Shown: positions 17,090 through 54,403 of the stretch, piece by piece
Numbering within the stretch: the stretch's first letter is position 1
Layout: every line of letters begins with the position of its first letter
Source: Candidatus Omnitrophota bacterium
GTDB lineage: Bacteria > Omnitrophota > Gorgyraeia > 2-02-FULL-51-18
Reading direction: 5' to 3'
DNA: 64,000 bases
Assembly (NCBI GenBank): GCA_945877765.1
Contig: CAMDWQ010000001.1
Span: forward strand, 86,253 to 150,252
Notes under the pieces: model-generated
Told to the model about the DNA's origin: nothing
Database searches by the model: none
The model's input: only the letters and a program-made list of their open reading frames with translations
Position numbers and translations under genes: made by a program

Positions 17090-17098
17090 GACACGCTT

Positions 17099-18058: not shown

Positions 18059-18067
18059 AACTATAAA

Positions 18068-21740: not shown

Positions 21741-22945
21741 AGAAACTTTCGGACGCCGCGCATCATATTCACGGGCAACCGATGTTCCAGCTTCTTGAAA
21801 AAGCGGAAGCGTTGGAGAAGCAAGGGCGTCGTATCTTGCATTTTGAGATCGGCACTCCCGGTTTTGAAAGTCCCGCTAATGTGGTGGGTGCCGCGATGGA
21901 GGCGCTTCGAGCAGGCAAGACGCGTTATGTCAGCTCCTGGGGTATTGAAGAATTGCGGCAGGCTATTTGCAGGGATGCCGCTGCGGACTTGGGGTTCCAG
22001 CCGACGGACCGCCAAGTCCTGATTTTGCCCGCCAACGCCGGCATTTATTTTTTAATGCGCTGTGTGGTGAATCCCGGCGAAGAGATTCTCGTGCCGGATC
22101 CGGCGTTTTCCAGTTACTACTCGGCGATAGAATTTATGGGCGCCAAGGCGGTCCGTATGCCCTTAAAGGATGAGAACGCGTTTCAGATTGATCTGGAGGA
22201 TCTGGCCAAAAAAGTAAGCGACCAAACCCGCCTTCTGATCGTCAATTCGCCGCACAATCCGACGGGTTCGGTCTTGCAGCCGGAAAATATGCAAAAACTC
22301 GGGGCTTTCGCCAAAAAAAATGACCTCTATATTTTGAGTGATGAAGTTTACCGGAAAGTCCATTATGGCGAGAAAGCGATTGATTCTCCCTCGAGTATCG
22401 ATCATTGCAAGGAGCGGACAATCGTGCTGAATAGTTTTTCAAAATCTCACGCCATGTCGGGCTGGAGGCTTGGTTATGTGATCGGTCCGGAACCAGTGAT
22501 TGAAAAAATGGCGTTGCTGCTTCAGACGATACTTTCCTGTGTACCGCCGTTTATCCAATACGCAGGTATTGCCGCGTTGCGGCCCGAAACCGATGTTTCG
22601 GTCAAAACCATGGTAGCGGAACTAAAAAAAAGAAGAGATGTGATTGTGCGCGGACTCAACTCGATTCCCGGCATTACTTGCCGCGTTCCGGAAGGCGCTT
22701 TTTATGTTTTCCCGGATATTCGCGGCACAGGCCTTGACGCGGGACAATTTGCTTCGCTGATTCTGGAAAAAGCGGGGGTCGCTCTTTTGCCAGGGACGGA
22801 TTTTGGAAAATACGGAGAGGATCATGTGCGCCTCTGCTATTCCACGACAGAGATTTCGGTGATCGAAGAAGCGATTGAAAAAATGAAAGCCGCACTCCAG
22901 CAAGCGGAAAAGCCTCTTTTAAATAGGCAGGAACGGCGGTCTTGA
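21737..22945 (+). CDS. PLP-dependent aminotransferase, class I/II (aspartate/aromatic aminotransferase fold)
   Basis: LIVNSPHNPTG and SFSKSHAMSGWRLGY (Schiff-base lysine motif). 402 aa. Confidence 0.85.
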   Translation: MKKLSDAAHHIHGQPMFQLLEKAEALEKQGRRILHFEIGTPGFESPANVVGAAMEALRAGKTRYVSSWGIEELRQAICRDAAADLGFQPTDRQVLILPANAGIYFLMRCVVNPGEEILVPDPAFSSYYSAIEFMGAKAVRMPLKDENAFQIDLEDLAKKVSDQTRLLIVNSPHNPTGSVLQPENMQKLGAFAKKNDLYILSDEVYRKVHYGEKAIDSPSSIDHCKERTIVLNSFSKSHAMSGWRLGYVIGPEPVIEKMALLLQTILSCVPPFIQYAGIAALRPETDVSVKTMVAELKKRRDVIVRGLNSIPGITCRVPEGAFYVFPDIRGTGLDAGQFASLILEKAGVALLPGTDFGKYGEDHVRLCYSTTEISVIEEAIEKMKAALQQAEKPLLNRQERRS

Positions 22946-24666: not shown

Positions 24667-25487
24667 AGCAGCTTCAACAAAAAGCGGCCTGGGTGAGAAG
24701 ACAGGTGCTGGAAGCCATCGCGGCCAAAGGAAAAGGGCATATTGGGGGGACTTATTCTTGCACGGATGTTCTGGTAGCGCTTTATTATGCCGGAATTCTG
24801 CGGATCGATCTGAAAAATCCGCGTCAGCCGGACCGCGACCGTTTTATTTTAAGCAAAGGCCACGCCTGCCTGGCGCTTTATTCTATTTATCTGGATCAGG
24901 GAATTTTCACTCCTGAAAAATTTGCGGAATATGGAGTCGACGGGGGAAGTTTGGGGGGACAGCTGGACATCCACATTCCCGGCGCTGAATACAATACCGG
25001 CTCGCTCGGCCACGCGCTTGGCATCGGCTGCGGAATGGCGCTGGCGGCCAAAATGGATGAGAAAAAATATAAAACCTATATTTTGATGGGAGACGCCGAA
25101 TGCCTGGAATGGTCCGTATGGGAATCGGTGATGTTTGCCTCTGAACATGGGCTGAATAATTTGATAGGAATTGTGGATCGCAATCGTCTTTCGGTCACGG
25201 ATGTCCTGGACGACGAACATGTGTTTAGAAATTTTAAAGAGAAGCTTCAAATGTTTGGCTGGAACGCGCAAGTGATCAACGGGCACTCTTTCGAAGAAAT
25301 TTTAAGTGCCTTTGAAGCGGCTAAAAATTCCGACAAACCTTTCATGCTATTGGCCAATACGATTAAAGGAAAAGGCATCTCTTTCATGGAAAACGGGATC
25401 AAGTGGCATCATTCGGTGCCAACACCGGCGGAGCTAGACAAGGCCCGCGCAGAGCTCAAAAAAAATGAAGACGCGCTGTCATGCTAA
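24657..25487 (+). CDS. transketolase, N-terminal (ThDP-binding) subunit of a split transketolase
   Basis: GHIGGTYSCTDVLVALYY, GHACLALYS and GSLGHALGIGCGMA transketolase motifs. 276 aa. Confidence 0.85.
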   Translation: MQIKQLQQKAAWVRRQVLEAIAAKGKGHIGGTYSCTDVLVALYYAGILRIDLKNPRQPDRDRFILSKGHACLALYSIYLDQGIFTPEKFAEYGVDGGSLGGQLDIHIPGAEYNTGSLGHALGIGCGMALAAKMDEKKYKTYILMGDAECLEWSVWESVMFASEHGLNNLIGIVDRNRLSVTDVLDDEHVFRNFKEKLQMFGWNAQVINGHSFEEILSAFEAAKNSDKPFMLLANTIKGKGISFMENGIKWHHSVPTPAELDKARAELKKNEDALSC

Positions 25488-26422
25488 AACTCGCCGAACT
25501 TGATATCCGGGACGCGTTTTTTGATGAGATCTATAGAATCGCCGCCGCGGACAAAAATGTCGTGTTTTTGACCGGCGATATGGACGCCTTTTCACTCCGC
25601 AAATTTAAACAGGATTTTCCTTCACGTTTTATCAATACCGGAGTCGCCGAACAGAATATGATCTGTGTGGCGTCCGGCCTTGCCGCCTGCGGGAAAAAAG
25701 TTTTTGTGTATGGGATCAACACCTTTGTGTCGATGCGGTGTTTTGAGCAGATCAAGATCAATATTTGCAGCATGAATCTTCCGGTGGTGATCATCGGCGC
25801 GGGGGCAGGGTTCTCTTTTGGGTTTGACGGCCCGACGCATCATGGCACGCAGGACGTGGCGGTGATGCGCGCCTTGCCGGAAATGGAAATTTGGAACCTG
25901 GCGGATGCCGGAATTGCCGCCGCTTGCGCGAAATTAGCCGCCAAAACAACTCATCCCATGTATATTCGCCTCGACAAGGGAAAATTTCCTGATTTTTATC
26001 AACCAGAAGAAAATATATCTGCCGGTTTTAAGCTATTAAAACCTCTTCAAAAAATAAATCTTGTCAGCACCGGTTTTATGACCCAGCAGGCGATGCAAAC
26101 CGCCCAAGCATTGGAACTTCAGTCGGTCTCCGTCGGGGTCGTCGATGTTTCACGACTCAAACCTTTAAATCAAGATTTAATCAAACAACTGATTGCTTCA
26201 TCCCATAAGATCTTCACGCTGGAAGAACATTGCCTGACGGGCGGCCTGGGATCTATTTTAAATGACGCGCTGGCTTCCCACAAAAACTCTATCACGCTTG
26301 AGCGGCTGGCGATCCCAGACCTTCAGTTTTTAGCTTACGGCAGCCGCGAATGGTTTCATCAAAGCAACGGGTTGGATGTTCAAAGCATCACCAACCGTAT
26401 CCAAAAATTGATTTCACGATGA
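25481..26422 (+). CDS. transketolase, C-terminal (pyrimidine-binding plus C-terminal) subunit
   Basis: FINTGVAEQNMICVASGLA and GPTHHGTQDVAVMRALP. 313 aa. Overlaps the N-terminal subunit gene. Confidence 0.85.
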   Translation: MLKLAELDIRDAFFDEIYRIAAADKNVVFLTGDMDAFSLRKFKQDFPSRFINTGVAEQNMICVASGLAACGKKVFVYGINTFVSMRCFEQIKINICSMNLPVVIIGAGAGFSFGFDGPTHHGTQDVAVMRALPEMEIWNLADAGIAAACAKLAAKTTHPMYIRLDKGKFPDFYQPEENISAGFKLLKPLQKINLVSTGFMTQQAMQTAQALELQSVSVGVVDVSRLKPLNQDLIKQLIASSHKIFTLEEHCLTGGLGSILNDALASHKNSITLERLAIPDLQFLAYGSREWFHQSNGLDVQSITNRIQKLISR

Positions 26423-27354
26423 ACAACGAGATCCAGTGCCTGGGTTTATCGGAATTTGCCTCTCTTTTTGGATGCAAGGCGGAGGAGATTCCTCAAGATT
26501 GCGCGCAGCTTATCGCCGAAAATGATTTTCGCTATCGTGTGGCAGAAGGGAAGGAATATGAGGAAATTCTTCAAGGAGTTCTCCATAAAATTGATTCCGG
26601 CGGATTTTCAATTGCCGGGGAAGAACGCCTTCCCAATTGGGAAAAGGGATGGGGCGAAAATCTGGAAGCTTTTTTAAAAACTAAAAATATTCTGGAGCTC
26701 GTCCCAAAATATTTCAGGCCCGGCCTGCCGCTGAGGCTTTTTCAGCAGTACATTTTGCCGCTGGATCCTAATTTTGAGATCAACTGGTATTCTGTTTTCA
26801 GGCTGTGGCTTTTTAAAACTTACTTCAAGAGTAGCGGCGCTATTTATGAATTCGGCTGCGGCTCCGGTTTCAACCTTCCGGTGTTAAGCAGCCTTTATCC
26901 GGACAGGAAAGTATTTGGTTTGGACTGGTCCCAAGCATCGGTGGATATCGTCAACCAAATGGCCAAAGCCTGCCGCTGGAATATGGAAGGCCGGCGTTTT
27001 GATTTTTTTAAACCCGATAAAAGTTTTATTCTCGAGCCGTCGAGCATTGTCACCACGATCGGAGCTTTAGAACAAACCGGCCAAAAATACATGGATTTTT
27101 TGGATTATCTAGTGGATTCCAAGCCGGCGCTGGTGGTGCATGCCGAACCTACGGTCGAGTGGTATGATAAAAACAATCCCGTGGATGAGGCGGCGATACG
27201 ATTTCACAAAACACGGCGCTACTGGGAAGGATTTATCGACAAACTTCGCCAACTGGAAAAACAGGGCCGTGTGCAGGTCATAAAAACCAAAAGATCGTAT
27301 TTTGGAAGCCTGTACGTGGAAGGTTATTCTCAAACGATTTGGAAATCCGTTTAA
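26419..27354 (+). CDS. class I SAM-dependent methyltransferase
   Basis: YEFGCGSGFNLPVLS motif I and VFGLDWS. Start placed at the internal ATG at 26419, which overlaps the previous stop. Confidence 0.6.
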   Translation: MNNEIQCLGLSEFASLFGCKAEEIPQDCAQLIAENDFRYRVAEGKEYEEILQGVLHKIDSGGFSIAGEERLPNWEKGWGENLEAFLKTKNILELVPKYFRPGLPLRLFQQYILPLDPNFEINWYSVFRLWLFKTYFKSSGAIYEFGCGSGFNLPVLSSLYPDRKVFGLDWSQASVDIVNQMAKACRWNMEGRRFDFFKPDKSFILEPSSIVTTIGALEQTGQKYMDFLDYLVDSKPALVVHAEPTVEWYDKNNPVDEAAIRFHKTRRYWEGFIDKLRQLEKQGRVQVIKTKRSYFGSLYVEGYSQTIWKSV

Positions 27355-27371
27355 AAAAAAGGGCCCCGACG

Positions 27372-28154
27372 ATGGATCTTGGGATCAAAGGAAAATACGC
27401 GCTGGTGACGGGGGGAAGTCACGGCATCGGCTTGGCGGCCGCACGGGCGCTTGCGTCCGAAGGTTGCCATGTGGCAATTTGCTCTCGGGACCCCAAGCGC
27501 CTTTCCACGGCTTTAAAAATTTTAAAAAAAGAGGGCGTGAAGGTTTTGGCGGTCCAGGCGGATGTGTTGGTGGCCGAAGATATTATCAACGCCACCAAAT
27601 TCATCGATAAATCTTGGAAGAAAATCGATATCCTGATTAATAACGTGGGTGGGGGCGGCCGCTGGGGCAGCGAGTCGATGGAAGAAACCTCTGAAAAGGT
27701 GTGGAGCGATGTGTTTGATAAAAACGCGACTGCTGCGGTGCGTTTTACGCGCTGGGCGATTCCACATATGCGGCGGCAGAAATGGGGCCGTATTGTCACG
27801 GTTGCTTCGGTTCACGGGAAAGAAGGCGGCGGCCGTCCGTGGTTTAACATGGCGAAGGCGGCGCAAATCAGCCTGATGAAATGCCTGTCTCTGAAGACGG
27901 ACCTGGTGCGGGATGGGATCACATTTAACACGGTGGCACCCGGCGGTATTCTGATCCCGGACACCGGCTGGGATGAAGAAAGAAAAAAGAATCCGAAGTT
28001 ATTTAAAAAAAAGGTGCTGGAAAATTTTCCGCTCGGCCGGTTGGGCACGCCGGAGGAAGTGGCTGGGGTCCTTTTGTTTTTATGCTCAAAAAATGCAAGC
28101 CTTGTGAACGGGGCGTGCATCACGGTGGACGGCGGCGAAAGTAAAAGTTTCTAA
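27372..28154 (+). CDS. short-chain dehydrogenase/reductase (SDR)
   Basis: ALVTGGSHGIGLAAARAL (TGxxxGxG) and the YxxxK region. About 260 aa. Confidence 0.85.
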   Translation: MDLGIKGKYALVTGGSHGIGLAAARALASEGCHVAICSRDPKRLSTALKILKKEGVKVLAVQADVLVAEDIINATKFIDKSWKKIDILINNVGGGGRWGSESMEETSEKVWSDVFDKNATAAVRFTRWAIPHMRRQKWGRIVTVASVHGKEGGGRPWFNMAKAAQISLMKCLSLKTDLVRDGITFNTVAPGGILIPDTGWDEERKKNPKLFKKKVLENFPLGRLGTPEEVAGVLLFLCSKNASLVNGACITVDGGESKSF

Positions 28155-28162
28155 AAAATCGA

Positions 28163-29161
28163 ATGATCCCTGAAAAAATCTTAAATTCTTTAAAAAATTC
28201 AAATGCGCTGGTGACGGGCGGCACGGGTTTAATCGGCCGGCAGGTCGTAGAACTCTTGGAAGAGGCCGGCGCGCATGTCCGCATTGTTTCTCTAGATCGC
28301 CTGAGGGTGAGCGGGAAAGCGGAACACGTTTATGGGGACCTGACGGATTTCTCTTTTTGCCGGGACACGGTCAAAGGAATGGATTATGTGTTTCATTTGG
28401 CCGGCATCAAGGGCTCGATTGAAGTGACCAAGGCCCGGCCGGCAAGTTTTTTTGTGCCGCTTTTGATGATGAATACGAATCTTCTGGAAGCCTGCCGCCT
28501 CCAAGGCGTCAAAAGGACGGTTTATACCAGTTCCATCGGCGCTTATCCCAGCGCTGAAATTTTTCGTGAAGACGATGACCACGCGGACGCGCCGCCGATG
28601 GATTTTTTCCCGGGGTGGGCCAAAAGAATGGCGGAGCTTCAGTTAAAATCCTATCAACTCGAATACGGCCATGAAAATTTCGCGGTGGTCCGGCCTTCCA
28701 ATGTTTACGGTCCCGGGGATAATTTTGATCCCGAAAACGCTATGGTGATTCCGTCTCTGATCGCGCGTGTTTTTCGCAAGGAAAATCCCGTCATGATTTG
28801 GGGGGACGGCTCGGCGGTGCGTGATTTTGTGTATAGCCGTGACGCGGCCGAGGGCGTCATTCTCGCCCTTATCCACGGCACCGCGCCGGGTTTTGTGAAT
28901 ATAGGCAGCGGCGAGGGAGTTAGCATCCGTGGGCTGGTTGAAACCCTGCGAACGGTCACCCCTTTTGAATACCAATTTGATATCGACAAATCTTCCGGTT
29001 TTCCACGGCGCGTCATGGATATCACGCGAGCCCGGCAGAAAATCGGTTACGCGCCCAGCGTCTCATTGGCGGAAGGGCTGAAGAAGACCTGCGATTGGTT
29101 TATGGCCCACAAAGATGAATATCTTTTAAGAAAAAATTATTTTGCCGATGCCGCTTCCTGA
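28163..29161 (+). CDS. NAD-dependent epimerase/dehydratase (GDP-L-fucose synthase-like extended SDR)
   Basis: ALVTGGTGLIGRQVVELL, YPSAE... and the PSNVYGPGD region. 332 aa. Confidence 0.8.
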   Translation: MIPEKILNSLKNSNALVTGGTGLIGRQVVELLEEAGAHVRIVSLDRLRVSGKAEHVYGDLTDFSFCRDTVKGMDYVFHLAGIKGSIEVTKARPASFFVPLLMMNTNLLEACRLQGVKRTVYTSSIGAYPSAEIFREDDDHADAPPMDFFPGWAKRMAELQLKSYQLEYGHENFAVVRPSNVYGPGDNFDPENAMVIPSLIARVFRKENPVMIWGDGSAVRDFVYSRDAAEGVILALIHGTAPGFVNIGSGEGVSIRGLVETLRTVTPFEYQFDIDKSSGFPRRVMDITRARQKIGYAPSVSLAEGLKKTCDWFMAHKDEYLLRKNYFADAAS

Positions 29162-30140
29162 TTTAAAAAAATCAAAAATCGTTGTCGCCGGAGCCTCGGG
29201 GTTCATCGGCTCTAATTTGGTGCGGTATTTTTTGAATCAAAATTACTCGGTCCGGGGGATTTTACGTCAGCGGCCTCCCGTGGTTGTCGATGACCGTATC
29301 GAATATGTTCACGCGGATCTTGCGACCAAGGAGGGCTGCCGCCTGGCGGTTCGTGACGCGGACTATCTGTTTATGTGTGCGGCTCAGACGGCCGGCGCGG
29401 CGGTAATGGCCGCCGACCCGCTCTCGCAAGTGACCCCGAATGTGCTGATTAATACACAACTTTTACAAGCCGCCTATGAGGCGCGGATCAAAAAAACCGT
29501 TTTTATCTCCAGCAGCGCCGCCTATCCTCCCACAGGCATTACCCCGGTCAAGGAGGAGCAGATGTTCGACGGTGATCCGCATGAAGTTTATTTTAGCGTG
29601 GGCTGGATGAAGCGCTATGCCGAAATTCTCTGCAAGATTTACGCTCAAAAAGTTCCCAACCCCATGCCGGTCGCGGTGGTGCGGCCATCCAATATTTACG
29701 GGCCTTTCGATAAATTTGATTTTAAAACTTCCCATGTCACCGCCGCGCTCTTACGGCGCGTCGTCGAACGCCACCAACCCCTGGAAGTATGGGGAGACGG
29801 TTCGGATATCCGGGATTTGATTTTCGTGGATGATTTTATAGAAGGAATGATGAAAGTATTTCATGCGCCCGACCCTTACGTTGCGGTCAATCTAGCATCC
29901 GGTCAAGGCACCACTGTTCGGCAAATCCTTGAGACTTTGCTGGAGGTCGATGGTTATAAAGACGCGAATATTCGTTATCTTAAGGATAAACCCCGAACGA
30001 TTCCGGCACGTTTTGTCGATACAACATTAGCTGAAAAAAAATTTGGATTTAAACCGGCCCACTCTCTCAAAGAGGGCTTTAAAAAAACAATTTCCTGGTA
30101 TCGGATGAACCCATATGGAGGTGACCGTGTCCGCGCTTGA
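29142..30140 (+). CDS. NAD-dependent epimerase/dehydratase (second extended SDR)
   Basis: VVAGASGFIGSNLVRYF and PSNIYGPFD. 332 aa. Confidence 0.8.
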   Translation: MPMPLPDLKKSKIVVAGASGFIGSNLVRYFLNQNYSVRGILRQRPPVVVDDRIEYVHADLATKEGCRLAVRDADYLFMCAAQTAGAAVMAADPLSQVTPNVLINTQLLQAAYEARIKKTVFISSSAAYPPTGITPVKEEQMFDGDPHEVYFSVGWMKRYAEILCKIYAQKVPNPMPVAVVRPSNIYGPFDKFDFKTSHVTAALLRRVVERHQPLEVWGDGSDIRDLIFVDDFIEGMMKVFHAPDPYVAVNLASGQGTTVRQILETLLEVDGYKDANIRYLKDKPRTIPARFVDTTLAEKKFGFKPAHSLKEGFKKTISWYRMNPYGGDRVRA

Positions 30141-30660
30141 AGTAGAAAAAACAGATTTGGACGGGGTGCTTTTGATTAAACCGTCGACGCATTTTAAAGA
30201 TTTCCGGGGTGAATATGTCGAGACGTATAATGAAAAACTTTATCAAGAAGCCGGGATTGACCTCCATTTTGTGCAGGATGATATTTCGACATCCAAAAAA
30301 AATGTGCTGCGCGGTATCCACGGGGACCAGAAGACGTGGAAGCTGGTCACCTGTCTTTACGGCGAGTTTTATATGGTTGTCGTTAACTGGGATCCGGCCT
30401 CCCCTCAATATAAAAAATGGACCTCGTTTGTTCTTTCCGATAAAAACCGGCATCAAGTTTTGATTCCGCCTAAATTCGGCAACGGGCATCTGGTTTTGTC
30501 GGAACAAGCAGTGTTTCATTACAAACAATCCACCTACTATGACCGCGCGGGTCAATTTACACTCCGTTGGAATGATGCTGATTTAAACCTTCGCTGGCCT
30601 ATCCAGAGCCCTATCTTGTCCGAAAGAGACGGCGGAATACCCACCATGTCGTCTGCCTAA
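30115..30660 (+). CDS. RmlC-like cupin, nucleotide-sugar 3,5-epimerase (dTDP-4-dehydrorhamnose 3,5-epimerase family)
   Basis: LLIKPSTHFKDFRGEYVETY..., RGIHGDQKTWKLVTCLYGEFYMVVVNW and PPKFGNGHLVLSEQAV match the RmlC family. 181 aa. Confidence 0.85.
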   Translation: MEVTVSALEVEKTDLDGVLLIKPSTHFKDFRGEYVETYNEKLYQEAGIDLHFVQDDISTSKKNVLRGIHGDQKTWKLVTCLYGEFYMVVVNWDPASPQYKKWTSFVLSDKNRHQVLIPPKFGNGHLVLSEQAVFHYKQSTYYDRAGQFTLRWNDADLNLRWPIQSPILSERDGGIPTMSSA

Positions 30661-30906: not shown

Positions 30907-33900
30907 ATGGATGAACAAAAAAAATTCAAAACTCAATATGGAAATAGACTGAAAGCAGTCTCTGCCTTCCTGGTAGTAGCTTTTTTATCTCAGGACGTGG
31001 CTTATGCGATTGGCGGCATTAATTTTAATGCAGATTCCGCCAAGGTAGCCTCTAATCCAATAACATTCTCAAATGACACCGCCATCGTCCGTAAATTTTC
31101 TCAACGTTCGGACGAAATGGTGATCAACATCCAAGACGCCCACCAGAAGCTGGGGGCACAGCAAAGCATTTCCTCTATTCTCGATCGGCTTGTCTGGCAA
31201 TACGATCTTAAGCTCATCGCGGTAGAAGGAGGTAGTGGGGATGTCGATACCTCTGCTCTATCTAGTCTGCCCGATGAGGCGCTCCGGAAAAAAACGGGTG
31301 AGCACCTTCTCAAGGAGGGCCTTATTTCAGCCGCTGAGTTTTATTCGATTGTTTCGGGTAATCAAGTGCGTCTCTACGGCGTCGAAGAGGATGCTGTTTA
31401 CCGAGAAAATTTGGAAGTCTTTAAAAAGTTAATTGACGATAAAAAAGACCTTCGGCGCGAGTTGACACTTTTGCAGGGCGCGCTACGCTCGCTGGAAGAA
31501 AAAATTTATAGCCCCGCGCTCAAGGAGCTTGAAGCCAAAAAGATGAAGCATTTCCGCGGCCAGATGAAGTTTGCCGAGTACTGGGAATATTTTAGTAGCC
31601 TTGCGGCGCGTCTGGGGATTGCATTGGACCCATACCCCAATCTTGAAAAAATTTCAAGCACGGTGGTCTTGGAAAAAAATATCAATTTCTCTGCCGCTTC
31701 CGCAGAGCGTGAGTCTCTTATCAAAAGACTTAGCGCTGAATTACCAAAGCTATCGCTTGAGAAGCTTATTTTTGCTCTGCTTGAATTCAAACAAGGGAAA
31801 ATGGCCTCTGGCAAGTTTTACAAGAACCTCGTGGAGATGGCCGAAGCGGCGTCGATTGAGCCAACAGCATACAGCAATATGAGCACTTATTCGCGGTATG
31901 TATCACTCTACGAGGCGATCGATCTTTTGGCGGTATTTGATGAAGCGGAGCGTTTTGAAAGTAAAATCCGGGAGGCTCTTTTTGCCAACTTAGAGGAACG
32001 CAATCTCTGGGTCCTGACCCATCGAGTGGGCATTGTTTCAAGGCTTTTGGATGTGACGCTGGATTCGGCGGATTATGAACAAATCAAATCCCACAAGGCT
32101 GATTTCCAGATCAAGAAACTAAAAGAAGATCTTTTTTCTCTGGGTGTGCGGCATGGATTTTCCACAGCAGGGGACGTTGATTTTGACCGTCTTGAAAAAA
32201 ATATGCCCCTGGCTCTGCGCTTTTATGAACTAGCGTCGCAGAGAAACCAGATTCTTTTAGCCAACACACTTAAAAAAATGCGCCGGGAAAAAATTCAGGT
32301 GGCGGCACTCGTGACAGGAGGTTTCCATTCGGACGGTATCGCCAAACTCATGGAGGAAGAAAAAATTTCCTGTCTTGTGGTGATGCCCAAGTTTGATGAG
32401 AAGTCGCCGGACCGGCCTTATATCTCAGTATTAACTAAAAAGCCTAAAGAATATGAGCAGCTTTTTAAGGATTCTGATTTTTATCTGACCGCGGAAGTAT
32501 TTTTTAATCATTTTCCTGATTACGGCGAAGATCGGTTGGCGGCGCTGGTGGCAAGTCTAGACCGAGTCAGCGGAAAAAATCATTTCACCTCAGGCGTGGT
32601 CCATCAACGCGATTTTGTCAGGCGCTGGGTGCGTGGTTTACGCGCACGGACGCGTGATATACAAAACCCTGCGGTTTCTGTCAAAAAATTAAATCAGGCC
32701 CTGCGAGGTGTGTCTGCAGTCAGGCGCGAAGGCGATTTTTACCGTGTGAAAGTAGGCGAGCGAGAATTTAACGTACCACTGGATCAAGCTAGCCGTGAGA
32801 TTGATGGTAGTCCGATAGAAATCACAGCGGTCAAGGCGCCCGCTTCATTTTTGATAGAGACCGATAGCCGGCAAGCCACTGCCCAAGACGTCTCGGCGTT
32901 GGTGAATCAGTTTTCATCCAAAGTTTCTGTGTGGACGATGCCTGGTTCCACGCCAAGAACGGTGCGGGTTGCTGTCAATCGTGAAGTGGAGCGGTTTGAA
33001 AGGGCGCGGAAGGTTCGCTTTACTCCCCAACAGAAAAGAAGTTTTCAAACGGTGGGCGCGCGTCTATGCGGGCCGAATCTTACCGCCCGGCTCCGAGCGC
33101 TTCCTGAGAATCAACAGCCAAGTATTCGATTCCAGCCGTCTAAAAAGCCGTCGATCGATGTTATTCGATCTCCTCGACAAAGAGAAGTTGTCCGGGCACA
33201 GCTTGAGATTGCCGAGCTTCGTGGAGGGCAGTCGGGAGGCGCTGCCATCATGGCCCTTGATTCCAAGACTGGGCATGTGGTGGTTGTTTTTGGAAAAACT
33301 AAAAAACGCAAGCGTGAGAGTCCCTCTGTGGCCGTGGATGCGGCCGTAGAAAAACTTGTTTTAAAAGCAGCTAACGCCGGGATTGTCAGTCTTCCGGAAT
33401 ATGACGCCGAGATGTCTCATTTGCGCTGGGCCACTGGTGGTGAAAGTACCTGGGATAATGCTCAGCCACACTGGCATGAAGAGCCCAAAAACGTTGCCGT
33501 TTTTGGAGTTTCCCGTCAGGAACACGGGGGTCTCAAGCTAGGAAGCAAGATTATGACCGTTTTTAATATTATCCAACACAACGGCGACCTGGATTATCTG
33601 AAAAAATCATGGCTTGTTAACGGTATTCAACAGGTGGTGACTTTGCCTTTCAGAAAAGCTCGCGAGATTTATGTCAGGCTCATGCCGCGCTCCAAATCAC
33701 GAGGTACGTCCGACTCCAAAACGATCGCCGAAGACGTTGATTTTGAGCTCACCCAAGGGCAGGTTTGGAAATCGGTGCGTTATGCTTATGGAAAAAATTT
33801 TCATGACAATAGCCATCAAGATCTCCCTTTTAGTGAAAAAACGATCAATGATGCCTCTGCGATTGCCACCAGATGTATTGAGGAGGTTGGTCTGGATCTG

Positions 33901-36900
33901 GGGGATCGGTTTTTCAATCCTGGCGCAGTCACGCTAACCGATGCCAGTCCAGAAGCCGTGCTCGCGGTCAAACAGAGAGTGTTTGACCGGTTTAGAGACG
34001 AAAAAATATTTAATAAAAACTCTGAGCTTGAAGAATTTTCTGATGCTTTCACCAAGGCATTTTTCTATCACGACATGGCTTTTGTGATGCGTTATCTTAG
34101 CTTTGCTTTTGTGGGCACGGCGGTGGTTAATGTTATGTCGACGCTTGAGCCGCGGTGGGGGGTATTTGCCAAGACGCAGTCTTTCTCGATTGGTTTTAAC
34201 AGTGAGGGTGTTCTAGGAGCCGCCGAGCCCGAAGCGGTGACGGTACCCCTCATGCAAGATGGGGATTCAACGGCGCGGCAGATGTTTGTCCCCGATGGCT
34301 ACTACGGGACGATTGAGCAGGACCCCAGGGCGAACAATCTAATTCGTTTGCATGCCCCTTTGGTTGAATTTGACGATCTCTACCAGAGGCCAGCACCTTT
34401 ATCCGAAGGAGAGTTACACCTTTTTCCTGTCATTGGCAACCCCAAAATTGAAGTCGCCTCGGGAGATATTCGCCAGCTGGCCAGTGTGGAAAATAAAAAT
34501 GCCATCGAGGACATTCCTTCGGTGCTTAAGCGCGTGCGCGAATCGGTATTGCCCGGCGGCCGCAATCGAAAAGCACTCGATCATTTAAAAGCGCTCATCA
34601 CACGACAGGCCCAGGAGTGGATTTCGGATGAGGAGACGCTGATAGCCAAACATGCCCAAGAAGGCCGGGTGCACGAAGCTCATAAGGGAGGAAACTACAA
34701 TCTTGTTTTGTATGGCTCTGATTTTAATCTCGATCTGATTCGCCGTGTCGCCGACCAGATGCATGGCGGTATGATGGATTTGAACGTGGCTGTCATGGAT
34801 TCGGGAGAGCTTGTAGAGCTTTTTAAGAAAAAAGCCGCCGGCCGTGAAGTGCCTATCGGACCCAACACGATATTTCTAGCGGTCAGTAACTCGGGTCAGA
34901 CGCAGGCGGTCAAAGCCGCTCATAGCGAAATAGTCAAAATGCAGGAGAGGGGCCAGCTCAGAGAGGGAAACAATCTTGTTTTGACGCAGAAACTTTTCAA
35001 CGCGCTTAGCTCGGAAGGGGGCCAGGGCTATCAGCTTGAGGATGAGGTTTTGCCTTATACGTTTCTTAACCTAAGCCACATCCGTCCAGACGGTAGTATT
35101 ACCCGACGCAATTCCGAAGCAGCCAGCGTGACCACGGCGGCGACGGAGGCTGTGCTGACTGAAATGATGATCGGTGCTTACCAGGCCGTGAATGATTTGG
35201 CGCACAACTCTGCGCAGAATCCACAACAGCTAAGACCCTATAGACTCGCCAAAGATTTAACCAGCGAAGATTTTTTGGCTTTCCGTGAATTCCAGCTAGC
35301 TCACTATGAACAACAGGCGGCCAATCGCATCGGTGTCGATTCCGAAGGTCAGCCCATCACGGATTCGCCCGACCAGAAGGCACTCGGTCTGGAAGTTGAG
35401 TACCGCACTCAGTCGGTGACCGAATGGATCAAGGGATTTATGATATTCAATCTTGGCTACATCGCTTTGATTGCGTGTGTGTTGCAACTTCCTCTTTTCG
35501 GAACGGCACTGGGAAGCATTTTCAACGCCCGTTTTGACGGTGCTCTTGATGCAGTTTTCTACTTATCAGGTTTTTGGCTGACGGTGGTTTTGATTCGCTG
35601 GTGGGAGGGGCGTCCCTTGTGGGATCGTATCTTGCCTCGCGTGGAAATATTCGCCGATCACGTGGGTTATTCGAGAATCATCGAAAGATTCAATGTGGCG
35701 CTTCTTGCCAACGCGCAGGGTTTCTTGAGTCCGCTTTTTTATTCGGCGAATGTGGTGCGCGATGTATTGCACCGCTATTCGATTCGTGGCTGGCGCGGCG
35801 TCTTGTTTTATATTTATAGTCCCGACGAAACCATGGGTTTAAAAGAAGCCGGGGATGCGGACTCCGCTGGCATGGTGGCTAGCCAAGTGCGTTTTAACAC
35901 GTTCAATGCCGGCGGCCCGCACACGCATAAAATTCTTCTACAAAATTCTGCGTACAACCGTGGCATGTCCAAAAAAAGCGGTCACCAAGATGTGGGCCTG
36001 TCAGACGTTACCGATGAATTGAAGAGGAAATATAGCGGCAAAATATCCGAGACGATGCAACACTTAATCAACCGCCGCTTGGGGGATCTAAGCAATTATC
36101 TGATTCCGGAAATCGTGATCGGCTACCGGCGCGCGGTTAATCTCTCGCGTTTTTTTAATCATGTGCTGGACGAAATTTTCCTAAGCTCTCTTGTGGGTAA
36201 GTGGCCGGCTTCCGTGGTACGAAAAACTTTGGTGCTTGTGGGTTTTGGATGGTTTCACGAGACGTTTCCTATCGGCGAAAGCTCAGGACGCGCGGGGATT
36301 CTTTCTACCTCTCACCCGGTGAACTCAAGCCTTCCAGGTGAAGACTCCGCCCGGATGTTGACTCGACGGGAAGCTGCTCAACAAAACCGTAAAAAAGTTT
36401 TAAGTGAGCTTGTCAGTGCTGGCGCCAAGGAAATGGAGCAGTCTCAGATTTTGGAAGAGATAGAAGCTGAGGCCATTGTAATCCAAAAAGTAGCTGAGCG
36501 TACCTATCAGAGAGAAATTGCAGAGGCGGAAGAAGTTTTTGCAAATAAGGTGAGGACGATAGAGGAGCATTTAACTAACGCAAAAGCTTTGACAAATAAT
36601 CCTCTTATAGACGATTCTTTCTCCCCAAGTCTTGATGCGAGAGCGGATCGTGCTCGCGAAGCGGCAGTGGCAGTGAGGGAAGCCACGATGGAACAAGCGG
36701 GAAAAAGAAGAGAAGCGGCGTCAGAAAATGCAATTTTGGACGCGGCTTCACCCAAAATCAAGGCGCTGAAAGCTAACCGGCATTTGCCTGTCCCGGGGAA
36801 TCCGGATCGTATCGAGCTTAGCCAGACATTTGACGTGGTGCAGGCCGATGGGGGCATGGATGTCTATTTTCCTGGTGGAAAAAGAATCTCATTTAGTCTT

Positions 36901-39900
36901 GCGCCCGGCGGCCAATATTATCAAGGCGACAACTCACACCCTTCGGTGAAAGCGGTACGGCAGGTATACAAGGGACAACCAATGCTCGTTATTAGTGGAG
37001 ATCTTTCTTCGGTATGGAAAGAGCATAATCCTGAATATGATCTTGTGCTTCCTCTCGTCGACCAGGGTTCTGCTACCGGAGCTCGTCTGAGTAGCGGCGC
37101 TTTTCTTATCAAAAAAGGCATGCTTTTAGACCCAACCGAATTGGTAAGACCGCAAGAGGTAATCCCAAATGAAGTGTCGGGCAAAGCATATCTAGTCAAA
37201 AGATCCCCCGATGCTGTCGTCGCGGAGTCTTCGATCCGTCCATTCACAAGCGAGCCTTCTGCCGCGTTAAAGAGTGTCATTGCTAAACGTAAAGCATGGT
37301 TTTCAGAAGGAGCGCTCCGTTTATTAGGGATATCATTTCTCTCCGTTGTCATCTGGATTTTTGTGGATATGAACAGCCGCTCAACTAGAAAATCGTTAAG
37401 CACTTCAGCGCATGAAAATAATCCTCCGGCTGCCGCGGCTCTGGAAGAAAAGCCTTTAGTGCCAGAGTCTTCCCCGGTCGTCCCCTCGATAAACCAGGTG
37501 CAGGTTGTGGCAGGGGAGCACTTAAGAAAGGACTTGGCATCCGTGCTAGAAAAATCAAAATCGGAAGAAGAGAAAGCCGAGGAGCTAAAAGCCGCAAAAG
37601 AAATAGCCGAGACGGAACTGGCTTTGCTGGAGCAAGAAAAAAAACAAACTCAAGATGAGCTTGCGATTGTCTTTGCCAAAGAGCAAGTGGCAGAAGAAGA
37701 AAAAAATTCTGCTAGCCATGCACTGGAGGCGGCAAACACCCAGCGCGAACTATTCATCAAGCAAGCCTCACTCGTGGATCAGGAGATAGCGGCCATGGAC
37801 GAGGCGCAATTGCAGAAAGGTGCGGATGTACCGGTTAGTATCAAATCAGAAAGAAAAAAATTGTCGGCCGCCGATCTTGATCGGGCCGCAAGATCTACAG
37901 AGGAAGTTTTGAAATTCCAACCCGCTTTAAGTCCTTATACAAAAGAGCTTCTGTCTAACGGTGTGCTTCACAAGATCAATGAGAAATGGTCTTTTAAGCG
38001 ATTTGAAAGTCCTCAAAGAACCACTTGGTGGCCGTTGACCGAGCAACATCTTGAAGGCGTTAAAACACTTGAGCAGCATTGGAGAGATTCACGTCAAACG
38101 CTGACCGATGCTGGAGTCAACCGCAAGGAAAATGGCGAGTTTTGGGTCTCGGTAGATGGCACCAATTTCAAAATGCCCTTATTGGGAACCGATTTAGTAG
38201 GCATTTATTATCCCCAGAATAAAACAAAAGGTCAGCCTCAACTTTATTTTGTACAACTGGGCCGTGCGGCTTCTGCGAAAATCACACAACAAATCGCTAC
38301 CGAGAATTCTTTGGCGAGAATCGAGGCTGAAAAGAAAGCCCAGGAAGCTATCGAGAGTCACCGTCTTTTAATCGAGAAGAAAGCAGCGATTGATGTTCAA
38401 CATTTAGTGGTCGAGCAATCGATCAAGAGTTTTGGTGAGGAGATTCAAACAGCGGACGAAAAATGGCTAGGATTGAAAAACAAAGAGACCGAGCTCCAGC
38501 GGCTGATTCATTCTATTCAGATCGAAGAAGGTCGGGAAAAGCTGTTACAGCTTACTCACGAGGAAGAGAAGTCGCGTTCCGATGCCGATGAGTTGAAGAC
38601 TCAAGCGAAAAACCTCCAGCGGCAATTAGACGAAGCCCAAAAAAATATTCAATCAACAGAAAAGCCGAACACCTCAGAGACAACGCCGCCCGCCACTGCT
38701 TCGGTTTCGGAGCTTGCACCGCTTTTCAAAAAAGCTCTACAGGCTGATAATTTTATTCAATTCAGAGATCTTGAAAATAAATTTCTGGAACGCCTAGCCA
38801 AACTAAAACGAGGCGACAAAGACAAATTTTCTAAAGATGTCTTGGTGCTGCGCCAATTTCGCCAGTGGCACCTGTCCGTGAAGCGGATTAATGAGGCGAA
38901 GGCCCGAGCAAAAAATGCGGCAGCCACCGGTGATCTTGCGGCTTATCGCCGGGCACTCGGGCAATTTTATAATCACTTGGAAGTTTTGCGCGGTGTCGAA
39001 GAAAAGCTCCCGCCCGGACACCACTTTGTTAACTTCGACAAGGCGGCCAATAGCATTGTTTCGGCGGGAAAAGTATTTGGGGGTCGTAGTCCCGCGTCAC
39101 AGAAAATTGCCCGTCAAATTTTATCGCTTGCCGTCGCATCGACGGCGTCGGGAGGCCGTCTTGCGGCATCTTTTTCAACGGTAAACAACAGGAAATTTAA
39201 TCTTCTATTTCTGGTACCGCCGGGGGTCAGTGTCCAACAATTCTCGCGCCAAAATATCGATTTTAGAACCAGTCTTGGTCCAGCGGCATCGCGATTTAGC
39301 ACGCGCTACGCGCCAACGAGTGTTTATACCGAGCGTTTTCTCCGAGATAAAAATTACCCCGTGGATGCTATTTTGGACAGCACCTCGTCAACGCCTGAAA
39401 GTACTTTGCTACTTTTGACCAAACTTGCCGAAACGGATGCGCGGACGTTTTCAACACTCTATCCTTTCGTACAGCGTCTTCTGGCTCGTCCGGAAAATAT
39501 TTCTCGCTTGTCTTGGGCGGAGGAAGCGCTTCTGGCGGTGTGGGTTGAACAAACTCTACCCAATCCTGCTCCAAGGAGAACATTTGTCTCATCGGGACGT
39601 CTAGTCGCTCAACCTGAAATATTAACCAATCAAGCCGAGCAGGGCGGGCATTCTTCAGAAGTGCTTGCCTCGATACTGGATCAGGCGATGGCTCATACGA
39701 TACTTGCAGAAACTAAAGCAGAAAAAAATTCTGCACGGATCGACCTTCAAACGGCAACTGAAAATATTCTTCAATATCTTTCCCCATCATCCGCCGAAGA
39801 CGGAAGACTCGTATTTTCCGGCAAAGCCAATGCTTTGGCGCTTCAACTGGCTTCGACACAGCGCTCGCGCTATGCGCTTGTGGATCCCAGCTATCGCGTG

Positions 39901-40476
39901 GTTATTCCGGACGTTGCAGGCCAAGCGCGTAAAACGATTGTGACAGAGCTGGATGTGTTTGCCAAAGACGGGGCAGGAGTGCCTTGGAGTTACCGCATGG
40001 AGAATTTAGACCGTAAAGTTCCCGGAGTTTTTAATCACGTCTTATGGGTCAACGATTCTTCCATCCGCTCTCTGGCCGAATTGATCCGGCGGTATCCGCA
40101 GGCGGCGATTTTTGGAGACCAGGTGATTTTTGCGCCAAGCGCCAAAACACACAAAGATATTTACCAGGCACGCGGCACCGTCGCCATCGACGGCGAATCT
40201 ATCGTCCTTACGTCTAAGCCCGGCATGCTCGATGAGGGAACTCAGTCCGTTAGCGATGTCAGGCCCGCGATGGTTTTGGCTTTGGATGCGCAGGCAAAAT
40301 CTACCATCCGGTTTATGGAGGCCGGGGCGAGATACTTGCTGAATCATTCAGCATTGCCAGCATACGTATTTCGTCAACCCGACGGAAGCCTTGTTTTCAG
40401 ACTTCCGAATATAGTGCCTCTGGATTATATTCTTGAAAATCAGAGAGCTGCCCGAACCGCTGAAATGTCCGCTTGA
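30907..40476 (+). CDS. giant secreted protein A (3189 aa); conserved N-terminal module shared with B and C, GlmS-like segment, TM hairpins, long coiled-coil region
   Basis: Signal peptide MDEQKK...AVSAFLVVAFLSQDVAYA. Motifs IQDAH, LVEGGSGD and TGGFHS are shared with the two paralogues. HLRWATGGESTWDNAQPH (Ntn amidotransferase-like) and LAVSNSGQTQAVKAA (SIS-like) occur internally. Hydrophobic stretches around aa 1510-1570. E/K/A-rich heptad regions around aa 1850-2550. Confidence 0.8.
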   Translation: MDEQKKFKTQYGNRLKAVSAFLVVAFLSQDVAYAIGGINFNADSAKVASNPITFSNDTAIVRKFSQRSDEMVINIQDAHQKLGAQQSISSILDRLVWQYDLKLIAVEGGSGDVDTSALSSLPDEALRKKTGEHLLKEGLISAAEFYSIVSGNQVRLYGVEEDAVYRENLEVFKKLIDDKKDLRRELTLLQGALRSLEEKIYSPALKELEAKKMKHFRGQMKFAEYWEYFSSLAARLGIALDPYPNLEKISSTVVLEKNINFSAASAERESLIKRLSAELPKLSLEKLIFALLEFKQGKMASGKFYKNLVEMAEAASIEPTAYSNMSTYSRYVSLYEAIDLLAVFDEAERFESKIREALFANLEERNLWVLTHRVGIVSRLLDVTLDSADYEQIKSHKADFQIKKLKEDLFSLGVRHGFSTAGDVDFDRLEKNMPLALRFYELASQRNQILLANTLKKMRREKIQVAALVTGGFHSDGIAKLMEEEKISCLVVMPKFDEKSPDRPYISVLTKKPKEYEQLFKDSDFYLTAEVFFNHFPDYGEDRLAALVASLDRVSGKNHFTSGVVHQRDFVRRWVRGLRARTRDIQNPAVSVKKLNQALRGVSAVRREGDFYRVKVGEREFNVPLDQASREIDGSPIEITAVKAPASFLIETDSRQATAQDVSALVNQFSSKVSVWTMPGSTPRTVRVAVNREVERFERARKVRFTPQQKRSFQTVGARLCGPNLTARLRALPENQQPSIRFQPSKKPSIDVIRSPRQREVVRAQLEIAELRGGQSGGAAIMALDSKTGHVVVVFGKTKKRKRESPSVAVDAAVEKLVLKAANAGIVSLPEYDAEMSHLRWATGGESTWDNAQPHWHEEPKNVAVFGVSRQEHGGLKLGSKIMTVFNIIQHNGDLDYLKKSWLVNGIQQVVTLPFRKAREIYVRLMPRSKSRGTSDSKTIAEDVDFELTQGQVWKSVRYAYGKNFHDNSHQDLPFSEKTINDASAIATRCIEEVGLDLGDRFFNPGAVTLTDASPEAVLAVKQRVFDRFRDEKIFNKNSELEEFSDAFTKAFFYHDMAFVMRYLSFAFVGTAVVNVMSTLEPRWGVFAKTQSFSIGFNSEGVLGAAEPEAVTVPLMQDGDSTARQMFVPDGYYGTIEQDPRANNLIRLHAPLVEFDDLYQRPAPLSEGELHLFPVIGNPKIEVASGDIRQLASVENKNAIEDIPSVLKRVRESVLPGGRNRKALDHLKALITRQAQEWISDEETLIAKHAQEGRVHEAHKGGNYNLVLYGSDFNLDLIRRVADQMHGGMMDLNVAVMDSGELVELFKKKAAGREVPIGPNTIFLAVSNSGQTQAVKAAHSEIVKMQERGQLREGNNLVLTQKLFNALSSEGGQGYQLEDEVLPYTFLNLSHIRPDGSITRRNSEAASVTTAATEAVLTEMMIGAYQAVNDLAHNSAQNPQQLRPYRLAKDLTSEDFLAFREFQLAHYEQQAANRIGVDSEGQPITDSPDQKALGLEVEYRTQSVTEWIKGFMIFNLGYIALIACVLQLPLFGTALGSIFNARFDGALDAVFYLSGFWLTVVLIRWWEGRPLWDRILPRVEIFADHVGYSRIIERFNVALLANAQGFLSPLFYSANVVRDVLHRYSIRGWRGVLFYIYSPDETMGLKEAGDADSAGMVASQVRFNTFNAGGPHTHKILLQNSAYNRGMSKKSGHQDVGLSDVTDELKRKYSGKISETMQHLINRRLGDLSNYLIPEIVIGYRRAVNLSRFFNHVLDEIFLSSLVGKWPASVVRKTLVLVGFGWFHETFPIGESSGRAGILSTSHPVNSSLPGEDSARMLTRREAAQQNRKKVLSELVSAGAKEMEQSQILEEIEAEAIVIQKVAERTYQREIAEAEEVFANKVRTIEEHLTNAKALTNNPLIDDSFSPSLDARADRAREAAVAVREATMEQAGKRREAASENAILDAASPKIKALKANRHLPVPGNPDRIELSQTFDVVQADGGMDVYFPGGKRISFSLAPGGQYYQGDNSHPSVKAVRQVYKGQPMLVISGDLSSVWKEHNPEYDLVLPLVDQGSATGARLSSGAFLIKKGMLLDPTELVRPQEVIPNEVSGKAYLVKRSPDAVVAESSIRPFTSEPSAALKSVIAKRKAWFSEGALRLLGISFLSVVIWIFVDMNSRSTRKSLSTSAHENNPPAAAALEEKPLVPESSPVVPSINQVQVVAGEHLRKDLASVLEKSKSEEEKAEELKAAKEIAETELALLEQEKKQTQDELAIVFAKEQVAEEEKNSASHALEAANTQRELFIKQASLVDQEIAAMDEAQLQKGADVPVSIKSERKKLSAADLDRAARSTEEVLKFQPALSPYTKELLSNGVLHKINEKWSFKRFESPQRTTWWPLTEQHLEGVKTLEQHWRDSRQTLTDAGVNRKENGEFWVSVDGTNFKMPLLGTDLVGIYYPQNKTKGQPQLYFVQLGRAASAKITQQIATENSLARIEAEKKAQEAIESHRLLIEKKAAIDVQHLVVEQSIKSFGEEIQTADEKWLGLKNKETELQRLIHSIQIEEGREKLLQLTHEEEKSRSDADELKTQAKNLQRQLDEAQKNIQSTEKPNTSETTPPATASVSELAPLFKKALQADNFIQFRDLENKFLERLAKLKRGDKDKFSKDVLVLRQFRQWHLSVKRINEAKARAKNAAATGDLAAYRRALGQFYNHLEVLRGVEEKLPPGHHFVNFDKAANSIVSAGKVFGGRSPASQKIARQILSLAVASTASGGRLAASFSTVNNRKFNLLFLVPPGVSVQQFSRQNIDFRTSLGPAASRFSTRYAPTSVYTERFLRDKNYPVDAILDSTSSTPESTLLLLTKLAETDARTFSTLYPFVQRLLARPENISRLSWAEEALLAVWVEQTLPNPAPRRTFVSSGRLVAQPEILTNQAEQGGHSSEVLASILDQAMAHTILAETKAEKNSARIDLQTATENILQYLSPSSAEDGRLVFSGKANALALQLASTQRSRYALVDPSYRVVIPDVAGQARKTIVTELDVFAKDGAGVPWSYRMENLDRKVPGVFNHVLWVNDSSIRSLAELIRRYPQAAIFGDQVIFAPSAKTHKDIYQARGTVAIDGESIVLTSKPGMLDEGTQSVSDVRPAMVLALDAQAKSTIRFMEAGARYLLNHSALPAYVFRQPDGSLVFRLPNIVPLDYILENQRAARTAEMSA

Positions 40477-47801: not shown

Positions 47802-47829
47802 GTATGATTCCCGCTTTCGCGGGAATGAC
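47802..47829. repeat. Half-copy of the variant foldback repeat immediately 3' of giant gene B
   Basis: gtatgattcccgctttcgcgggaatgac. It generates the spurious antisense ORF 47620-47868 (TPGVIPAKAGI). Confidence 0.7.
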
Positions 47830-54273: not shown

Positions 54274-54403
54274 CGACGTCTCCTGTTTATTTAACGGCGA
54301 TAATTCTACCACACAATCTTTTGGGGGAGGTAAGGCCTTTATTTGTAGGATTTTTTTGGGACGGGTGATAAAATACCGTGCATGTTCACCCGAGGGCATT
54401 CCG

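Follow-up and report, generated by a model that had tools for sequence, protein, structure and literature searches.

A putative hydrolase domain of the Tiki/Ere/ChaN type at the head of giant, probably exported proteins in Omnitrophota

The erythromycin esterase EreC has a catalytic pentad of E47, H50, E78, R261 and H289, with 28 residues from the first His to the second Glu and 28 from the Arg to the second His. The corresponding residues of RRSP are E3900, H3902, E3930, R4001 and H4030, with spacings of 28 and 29. Ere and RRSP have been reported to be metal-independent and Tiki to be metal-dependent. The known Tiki, TraB and RRSP proteins are peptidases, and a role in leader-peptide removal has been proposed for the Tiki/TraB peptidases. 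Here we analyse 64,000 nucleotides (nt) from a Candidatus Omnitrophota bacterium (assembly GCA_945877765.1, contig CAMDWQ010000001.1, positions 86,253 to 150,252; hereafter the window), in which three giant open reading frames (ORFs A, B and C) begin with a common module. The bacteria of the phylum Omnitrophota are uncultured, very small and probably predators or parasites, and giant proteins are the signature feature of the phylum. In the literature on these giants, many enzyme-like domains and a topology of signal peptide plus membrane helices have already been described, while the N-terminal regions are said to "generally lack identifiable domains" and functions are considered obscure. Taken as a whole, the module is best explained as an exported, divergent domain of the Tiki/Ere/ChaN type, with a complete pentad and hydrolase activity, at a probability of roughly 0.7. 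The predicted fold, the conservation, the place within the proteins and the spread among taxa are results of the analysis; membership of the superfamily, catalysis, a location beyond the membrane and any substrate are inferred.

In A, B and C the module is a single folded domain of about 450 residues that starts a few residues after the signal peptide (Table 1). BLASTP comparison restricted the region common to the three proteins to their first 510-660 residues, and the identity of the module was about 25% both between A and B and between A and C. All three proteins open with a typical, predicted cleavable Sec signal peptide, in which a basic start and a hydrophobic stretch are followed by AYA, SYS or AQA before the predicted cut. 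Relatives had the same layout, and small residues were found at positions -3 and -1 in A, B, C and these relatives. In A the start is rich in Lys and Arg, the hydrophobic segment reads AVSAFLVVAFL, AYA precedes the predicted cut and hydropathy peaks at amino acids (aa) 17-38. Translation of B from its first ATG places about 40 additional residues (41299-41430), with a second hydrophobic stretch among them, in front of the signal-peptide-like segment. The true start of B probably lies further downstream, shortly ahead of the hydrophobic segment at aa 43-61. Because of the signal peptide, the module is predicted to be located outside the cytoplasmic membrane.

AlphaFold2 models were obtained for module A (aa 66-505; predicted local distance difference test, pLDDT, 91; predicted template modelling score, pTM, 0.80) and for a standalone relative, P0029 (pLDDT 92.6, pTM 0.83). 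The N-terminal part consists of a short linker and a conserved strand (b0), which reads "IPxxxGxIKE" in most relatives. In both models the first half of the core then follows as b1 leading to Q-D-A-H, b2 to V-E-G-G and b3 to G-V-E. The second half comprises a helical lobe of about 300 residues, a long helix with an invariant Arg and Asn, b4 leading to G-G-F/Y-H and the last strand, b5. The conserved polar residues are positioned at the C-terminal ends of core strands or on the helix before the penultimate strand. Judged from the order of the strands, the models agree with the superfamily trait of a parallel beta-strand core flanked by helices, with active-site residues at the C-terminal ends of the strands.

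Table 1. Coordinates of the three module-bearing ORFs and of features within them. Positions are those of the window; HMM, hidden Markov model.
Feature	Position	Strand	Protein coordinates or length	Remarks
Giant ORF A	30907-40476	+	3189 aa	Signal peptide, N-terminal hydrolase-like module, then body (ORF list, hydropathy)
Predicted Sec signal peptide of A	30907-31008	+	aa 1-34	Sequence, hydropathy
Module A	31054-32433	+	~aa 50-509	Extra N-terminal strand, alpha/beta core, helical lobe inserted in core; family HMM aa 13-528, E 8e-167
Asp77-Ala78-His79 of A	31135-31143	+	aa 77-79	Right after core strand 1; compare EreC E47/H50, RRSP E3900/H3902
Glu107 of A	31225-31227	+	aa 107	End of core strand 2, VEGG motif, 28 after His79; compare EreC E78, RRSP E3930
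Glu160 of A	31384-31386	+	aa 160	G-V-E motif, end of core strand 3; extra conserved acid near predicted site
All-helical lobe of A	31390-32286	+	~aa 162-460	Roughly 13 helices between strand 3 and Arg-bearing helix; both models
Arg446 of A	32242-32244	+	aa 446	28 before His474; compare EreC R261, RRSP R4001
TGGFH of A	32314-32328	+	aa 470-474	Second GxxH, after penultimate core strand; His474, compare EreC H289, RRSP H4030
Giant ORF B	41299-47784	+	2161 aa	Counted from first ATG
Module B	41491-42987	+	~aa 65-563	Family HMM E 4e-137
Pentad of B	41620-41628; 41710-41712; 42730-42732; 42880-42882	+	D108 and H110; E138; R478; H528	
Palindromic element	42778-42843		66 nt	Interrupts module B in frame; both arms GC-rich hairpins
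Giant ORF C	56611-64000, past window end	+	>2463 aa	
Signal peptide of C	56611-56706	+	aa 1-32	
Module C	56707-58155	+	~aa 33-515	Family HMM E 9e-132
Pentad of C	56872-56880; 56962-56964; 57946-57948; 58042-58044	+	D88 and H90; E118; R446; H478	H478 in AGGYH

The order of the pentad matches that of EreC and RRSP, and the spacings in A (28 and 28) are equal to those of EreC and within one residue of those of RRSP. The VEGG Glu lies exactly 28 residues after the first His in each of the three modules. The distance from the Arg to the second His is 28 in A, 32 in C and 50 in B (28 without 22 inserted residues). Conservation was assessed in 195 sequences, including 143 representatives that were at most 50% identical to one another. 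The pentad Glu, the Arg, and each of the two Gly and the His of the second motif were found in 195 of 195. The first acid was Asp or Glu in 194 of 194 relatives and the first His was present in 194 of 194, leaving the replacement of Asp by Glu as the sole variation at the five pentad positions. The position of Glu160 was occupied by Glu in 189 and by Asp in 6 of the 195.

An earlier note on this stretch had pointed to two His motifs, IQDAH and TGG(Y/F)H, and to LVEGG(S/G)GD as invariant and at fixed spacing in the three proteins, and had suggested a catalytic domain rather than a structural repeat. In substance the note is right, though several of its details are slightly off. The invariance of the His, Asp and Glu residues was confirmed, in 51 relatives and again in the 195. 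Three of its six motif coordinates were exact (IQDAH of A, 31129-31143, and of C, 56866-56880; TGGYH of B, 42868-42882) and three were off by 3-9 nt. IQDAH of B lies at 41614-41628, as 41623-41637 translates to AHSNL. TGGFH of A had been placed 3 nt too early, and the second His motif of C, also 3 nt off, is AGGYH at 58030-58044 and not TGGYH. The distance between the two His residues is similar rather than fixed (395 aa in A, 418 in B and 388 in C), and it is longer in B because a 66-nt palindromic element is inserted there in frame. Only V-E-G-G...D is common to the versions of the third motif, AVEGGSGD (A), LVEGGGTD (B) and LVEGGSGD (C). In a six-frame translation of the whole window, each motif was confined to ORFs A, B and C, with 0.013 occurrences of IQDAH expected by chance. 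The suggestion of a catalytic, hydrolase-type domain is supported by the catalytic residues and by the structure and profile searches described below.

Structures were searched with Foldseek against 350,542 PDB chains and sequences against 24,736 Pfam models. The top match of the module A model was EreC (6xcq; E 0.032, probability 0.95, TM-score 0.25), and further matches included 6xcs, BcR135 (2rad and 3b55) and ChaN (2g5g). The same EreC, BcR135 and ChaN entries were recovered with the P0029 model, more weakly, at ranks 2, 4, 7, 13 and 27. With both models these were the only alpha/beta matches, the others being generic long helical bundles that matched the lobe. Among Pfam families, only PF04187 (ChaN, Tiki superfamily) was repeatedly matched by the core, namely by 6 of the 51 full modules and by 5 of the 21 cores from which the lobe had been removed. 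Its best match had an E-value of 3.2e-4 and 21.2 bits against a cut-off of 27.7, and the register was always the same, aligning core positions 119-165 to positions 158-203 of the 213 in the profile. PF01963 and DUF5694 had one or two matches each. These results point to the families that the earlier note had named for comparison, TraB/PrgY/GumN/Tiki and ChaN/EreA.

The module is nevertheless outside the Ere, ChaN and TraB families as Pfam defines them, though by analogy it probably works like Ere. No Pfam or NCBIfam model reached its cut-off for the module with the full proteins A, B and C as queries, nor, apart from a single match of the helical lobe described below, did any Pfam model with the 51 modules. 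PF05139 was absent from the table of matches for A, B and C, from the 25 families most often matched by the 51 modules and from the complete list of 19 families matched by the 21 cores at E<=10, which places the module outside the erythromycin esterase family proper. The PF04187 matches covered positions 158-203 of the profile only, at 21.2 bits at best, and there was none in A, B and C themselves. PF01963 was matched by one of the 21 cores, with an E-value of 0.067.

Several observations weigh against our interpretation. No score reached a curated or conventional threshold, whether in Pfam or in Foldseek (no E-value <=1e-3; TM-scores of about 0.25). No superfamily member was detected among PDB sequences when these were searched by HMM with a full profile, a core-only profile and one ChaN-like core. 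Comparisons with YbaP and PrgY alignments in hhalign gave non-significant probabilities of 0.3-6%; these alignments were shallow, that of YbaP because all of its relatives were at least 59% identical to it. In the first motif, Q-D-A-H, an invariant Gln replaces the Gly of the G-x-x-H that is usual in the superfamily. The spatial clustering of the pentad is a prediction from the topology of the models. Some superfamily members, such as ChaN and the C1/C2 region of Pasteurella toxin (PMT C1/C2), are not enzymes. Finally, neither a conserved cleavage site nor a partner gene was found.

Superfamily membership was judged from the agreement of several weak lines of evidence, because no single similarity score passes a curated threshold. 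Were the resemblance convergent or accidental, the module would represent a Rossmann-like alpha/beta fold that is new and has a chemistry of its own, such as that of a transferase. The sub-threshold scores and the failed hhalign comparisons with TraB alignments would fit such a scenario, as would a weak resemblance of the helix, strand and "VEGGSGD" to the "VVDGGSPD" of a GT2 glycosyltransferase (E 0.26-0.5). However, the structure search, the profile search and the order and spacing of the motifs all select the same superfamily, and no glycosyltransferase was present among the 50 top-ranked matches listed for either Foldseek search. The GT2 match was treated as a chance or local resemblance, and we regard convergence as extremely improbable. 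We conclude that the module probably constitutes a new, very divergent family of the Tiki/Ere/ChaN superfamily, given the agreement of these searches with the motif order and spacing.

Within the same fold, the module could instead be a non-catalytic domain that binds a ligand, as the haem-binding ChaN does. It would then serve to bind a periplasmic cofactor, metal or small molecule, with His, Glu and Tyr residues as ligands. The repeated matches to ChaN alone among Pfam families would suit such a function, and several Tyr residues (Y165, Y440 and Y505 in A) never vary. The superfamily does include non-enzymes, and McpZ (8f7n), a helical-bundle sensor, heads the Foldseek list of the P0029 model with an E-value of 0.022. 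However, the matches to ChaN span only the Arg...GxxH segment that is shared across the superfamily. PMT C1/C2, the one non-enzyme compared in this respect, has no catalytic 2His/2Glu motif, whereas the whole pentad of the module, including the transition-state Arg, is retained in 195 of 195 sequences, which is a mark of active superfamily members. A purely ligand-binding domain is thus distinctly unlikely, and a hydrolase remains the preferred interpretation.

By analogy with the mechanism proposed for EreC, catalysis may proceed as follows in A. Asp77 would orient His79, the general base, which would deprotonate a water molecule that Glu107 and His474 hold in place. The hydroxide so formed would attack an ester or peptide carbonyl, and Arg446 would stabilise the tetrahedral oxyanion. 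Judged on this analogy, the module is most likely an active, exported hydrolase in which water is activated by His and Glu, and which would cleave a peptide or ester bond outside the cytoplasmic membrane.

In the models, the helical lobe is likely to be a substrate-binding lobe or pocket, or a lid. Weak matches to PAH_ZNF598 were found in the lobe of 28 out of 51 members (one above the Pfam cut-off), at aa ~240-330 in A and ~255-340 in relatives. In addition, the family profile weakly matched centrin and calmodulin EF-hand pairs among PDB sequences (E 0.007). These hints suggest that part of the lobe may be a four-helix peptide-binding unit; the centrin/calmodulin match itself was treated as a chance or local resemblance. 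Two other resemblances were discarded. In the core rather than the lobe, a helix with the pattern "AExxLxxGxISxxEY" (aa ~122-150 in A) weakly matched the repeated linker domains of the Gloeobacter phycobilisome proteins Glr1262 and Glr2806 (9k9w, E 0.003-0.014), probably by chance. For the lobe, pore-forming bundles of the ClyA/AhlB type recurred among the Foldseek matches of both models, though at probabilities no higher than 0.23, and the lobe has no hydrophobic segment.

A profile built from the three modules retrieved 49 relatives, all of them hypothetical proteins of Omnitrophica/Omnitrophota or the "PVC group". A HMMER search of 1.84 billion cluster representatives (clusters at 50% identity) gave 10,161 matches at E<=1e-3, of which 7,017 were at E<=1e-30. 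Among the 150 matches listed, the module was always at approximately residues 10-530, in proteins of 469 to 5973 aa. At least 568 loci were found when one genome per species was searched, nearly all in metagenome-assembled genomes (MAGs) of Omnitrophota. Exceptions were some loci labelled "uncultured Planctomycetia" and two from one MAG labelled Eisenbacteria.

Gene layouts were counted in the best 80 of the at least 568 loci. In these 80 the module began no more than 77 codons from the start of the open frame. It was followed by more than 120 further residues in 63 out of 64 loci, and 60 extended beyond the 3-kb flank. Standalone module genes of about 500 aa with nothing attached were also common. 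The standalone P0029 gene is followed 41 nt later by a gene for a 983-aa FBPase_3 protein and then by one for a 2010-aa PPDK_N protein, which parallels, in split form, the layout fused in C. Standalone module genes directly upstream of FBPase_3-like and PPDK_N-like genes were detected in the loci L001 (10001-20672) and L003 (1670-11692). Three genes with the module are clustered over 12 kb in L003, between giant genes that include one with a Peptidase_C39 domain. A tblastn search of the split locus L001 with C recovered only the module, the FBPase-like parts being too divergent. Fused and split versions of one layout coexist, and the module is always either the first domain after the signal peptide or a separate gene directly before the cargo genes. 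In many standalone relatives a conserved Cys directly follows the first catalytic His (QDAHCNYEAQKN); cysteine is nearly absent from A, B and C (0.0-0.1%).

The strict position of the module after the signal peptide in every case examined, whatever follows, could suggest an export or anchoring leader. Such a leader would fold first in the periplasm and help to translocate, retain or dock long polypeptides, with the conserved residues serving folding or a structural metal site. That the module is the only part common to A, B and C agrees with this explanation. However, the frequency of standalone versions is at odds with it, and a structural role would leave unexplained the absolute conservation of five residues that match a known catalytic site in order and spacing. 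We consider a mere leader function highly improbable and retain the hydrolase interpretation.

The first exported position of the module, the varied parts downstream and the split loci suggest that the hydrolase acts on the giant protein itself or on neighbouring products. A processing peptidase is favoured since the known Tiki, TraB and RRSP proteins have peptidase activity and leader-peptide removal has been proposed for Tiki/TraB. Our tentative preference is that the module, acting in cis or in trans, processes or matures the giant protein or its neighbours. A hydrolytic head that acts on the envelope of target cells is our second choice and rather unlikely. In a broader version of the processing role, which on present evidence is itself unlikely, the module would be the enzyme by which the members of a "leader hydrolase plus cargo" system, common to the whole phylum, are matured, and the giants with signal peptides would be extracytoplasmic polyproteins. 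The Tiki/Ere-type head would cut the polypeptide that follows it, or neighbouring products in split loci, into working pieces. If this were true, the system would be analogous to viral polyproteins or to the self-processing MARTX toxins, with an unrelated enzyme. It would also provide the first mechanistic handle on the extracellular maturation of proteins of at least 3,000 aa, reported to reach 147,155 aa.

The bodies of A and B contained no recognisable domain in Pfam, NCBIfam and PDB sequence searches. A few transmembrane helices were predicted from hydropathy, near aa 1508-1563 and 2135-2153 in A and in a single region near aa 1285-1310 in B, more than 1000 residues downstream of the module. 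The body of C matched FBPase_3 (aa 1348-1532, 3.7e-22) and, below the Pfam cut-off, TAL_FSA (1.3e-4). In Pfam and NCBIfam searches, aa ~640-1900 of C comprised regions like fructose-bisphosphate aldolase/phosphatase and transaldolase, downstream of the signal peptide. An extracytoplasmic location would be odd for sugar-phosphate enzymes. The layout of C is consistent with the "multi-enzyme metabolic" giants of a 2026 preprint.

Within the window, no gene was found to recur beside all three giants. The upstream neighbours are sugar-nucleotide genes for A, A itself for B, and FecR-like and porin-like genes for C. Directly upstream of A (14745-30660) is a long same-strand cluster of sugar-nucleotide and surface-polysaccharide genes. 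Among its products are a PMT_2-like glycosyltransferase, two split transketolase subunit sets, a thiamine pyrophosphate enzyme and an aminotransferase, together with a methyltransferase, a short-chain dehydrogenase, two epimerases and a dTDP-sugar 3,5-epimerase. Between B and C, on the minus strand (47955-49282), there is an AbiEii-type nucleotidyltransferase toxin gene (Pfam 3.9e-29). A 197-aa ORF just upstream of it (48689-49282, minus strand) had no Pfam match and could be its antitoxin. Immediately upstream of C (54356-56226) are the FecR-like gene and a putative beta-barrel porin-like gene (BBP2_2), a possible envelope partner.

Through the palindromic element, module B gains 22 aa (VIPAKAGIRSSLGADSRFRGND) after the Arg helix and before the GGYH strand. 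Its hairpin arms are GTCATCCCCGCGAAAGCGGGGATC and a near-complement of this sequence. A further single copy of the arm was found at 47806-47829, 22 nt past the stop codon of B, where 0 matches were expected by chance. Another copy was present in a different Omnitrophota MAG (L030, 442-465), just upstream of a module gene. In appearance the element is a small mobile or terminator-like repeat, tolerated within a coding loop.

The new element in these proteins is the head domain and its assignment. The domain was not mentioned in the papers and preprints on Omnitrophota giant proteins that we searched, and a full-text literature search returned no paper in which terms for Tiki or erythromycin esterase stood alongside Omnitrophota. 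Notable features of the family are its size, its near-confinement to one phylum and its fixed place at the start of giant proteins, and a family of more than 10,000 clusters at 50% identity is without a Pfam or NCBIfam model. As a sequence marker, the module can help to locate where giant genes truly start in fragmented assemblies. It also makes a biochemical hypothesis testable with a 50-kDa construct rather than a protein of several thousand residues, and it provides a possible link between the fused and split forms of "multi-enzyme" giants.

The Ere enzymes (EreA/B/C/D and BcR135/136 of B. cereus; PF05139; 6XCQ, 3B55) are the best structural matches for both models. Like the module, they consist of two lobes, an alpha/beta major lobe and a second lobe placed between the strand-2 Glu and the Arg helix. 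They also share the residue order (acid and His, Glu, Arg or Lys, His) and both spacings of 28. The mechanism proposed for them, with a His-activated water and an oxyanion held by Arg, would carry over directly to the module, possibly including its independence of metal. However, the acid precedes the His by two residues in the module (D-x-H) and by three in Ere (E-x-x-H), and the interval from Glu to Arg that contains the second lobe is 339 residues in the module and 183 in EreC. The module is predicted from its signal peptide to be exported and is usually fused to a giant protein, while to our knowledge no signal peptide and no giant fusion partner has been reported for the Ere enzymes of about 400 aa.

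ChaN (PF04187; 2G5G) resembles the module in acting outside the cytoplasm. The PF04187 matches cover the Arg...GxxH segment in one register, and Foldseek aligned 112-119 core columns at a root-mean-square deviation of 6-7 A. Unlike the module, which we interpret as a hydrolase, ChaN is a haem-binding protein and not an enzyme. Its chain of 255 residues has no room for a helical insertion of about 300 residues, and it is not fused to a giant.

RRSP (DUF5) of the MARTX toxins, compared here along with PMT C1/C2, provides an example of a Tiki-fold hydrolase within a very large, secreted, multidomain bacterial protein. RRSP, a metal-independent endopeptidase, has a 2His/2Glu site and an essential Arg with spacings close to those of the module, and its extra helical domains are required for activity. 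It was not matched in our sequence or Foldseek searches with the module. RRSP is an internal effector that is delivered into host cells, whereas the module is the first domain after the signal peptide. MARTX toxins process themselves by means of a separate cysteine protease.

The motifs of the TraB family (PF01963) are GSIH...VEAD...QRN...GALH in YbaP of E. coli and GTAH...LEWD...ERD...GQAH in PrgY of pCF10, and those of the module, QDAH...VEGG...QRN/QRD...GGFH, follow the same logic. TraB proteins differ from the module in their spacings, which are 24-26 (His to Glu; 26 in YbaP and 24 in PrgY) and 23-24 instead of 28 and 28, and in having no large helical lobe. The layout of PrgY is similar to that of the giants, with the hydrolase domain first and hydrophobic, probably membrane-spanning segments after it. 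Tiki has been described with this same layout. Members of the TraB/Tiki family act on peptides or on the N-termini of proteins, which sets a precedent for a processing role of the module.

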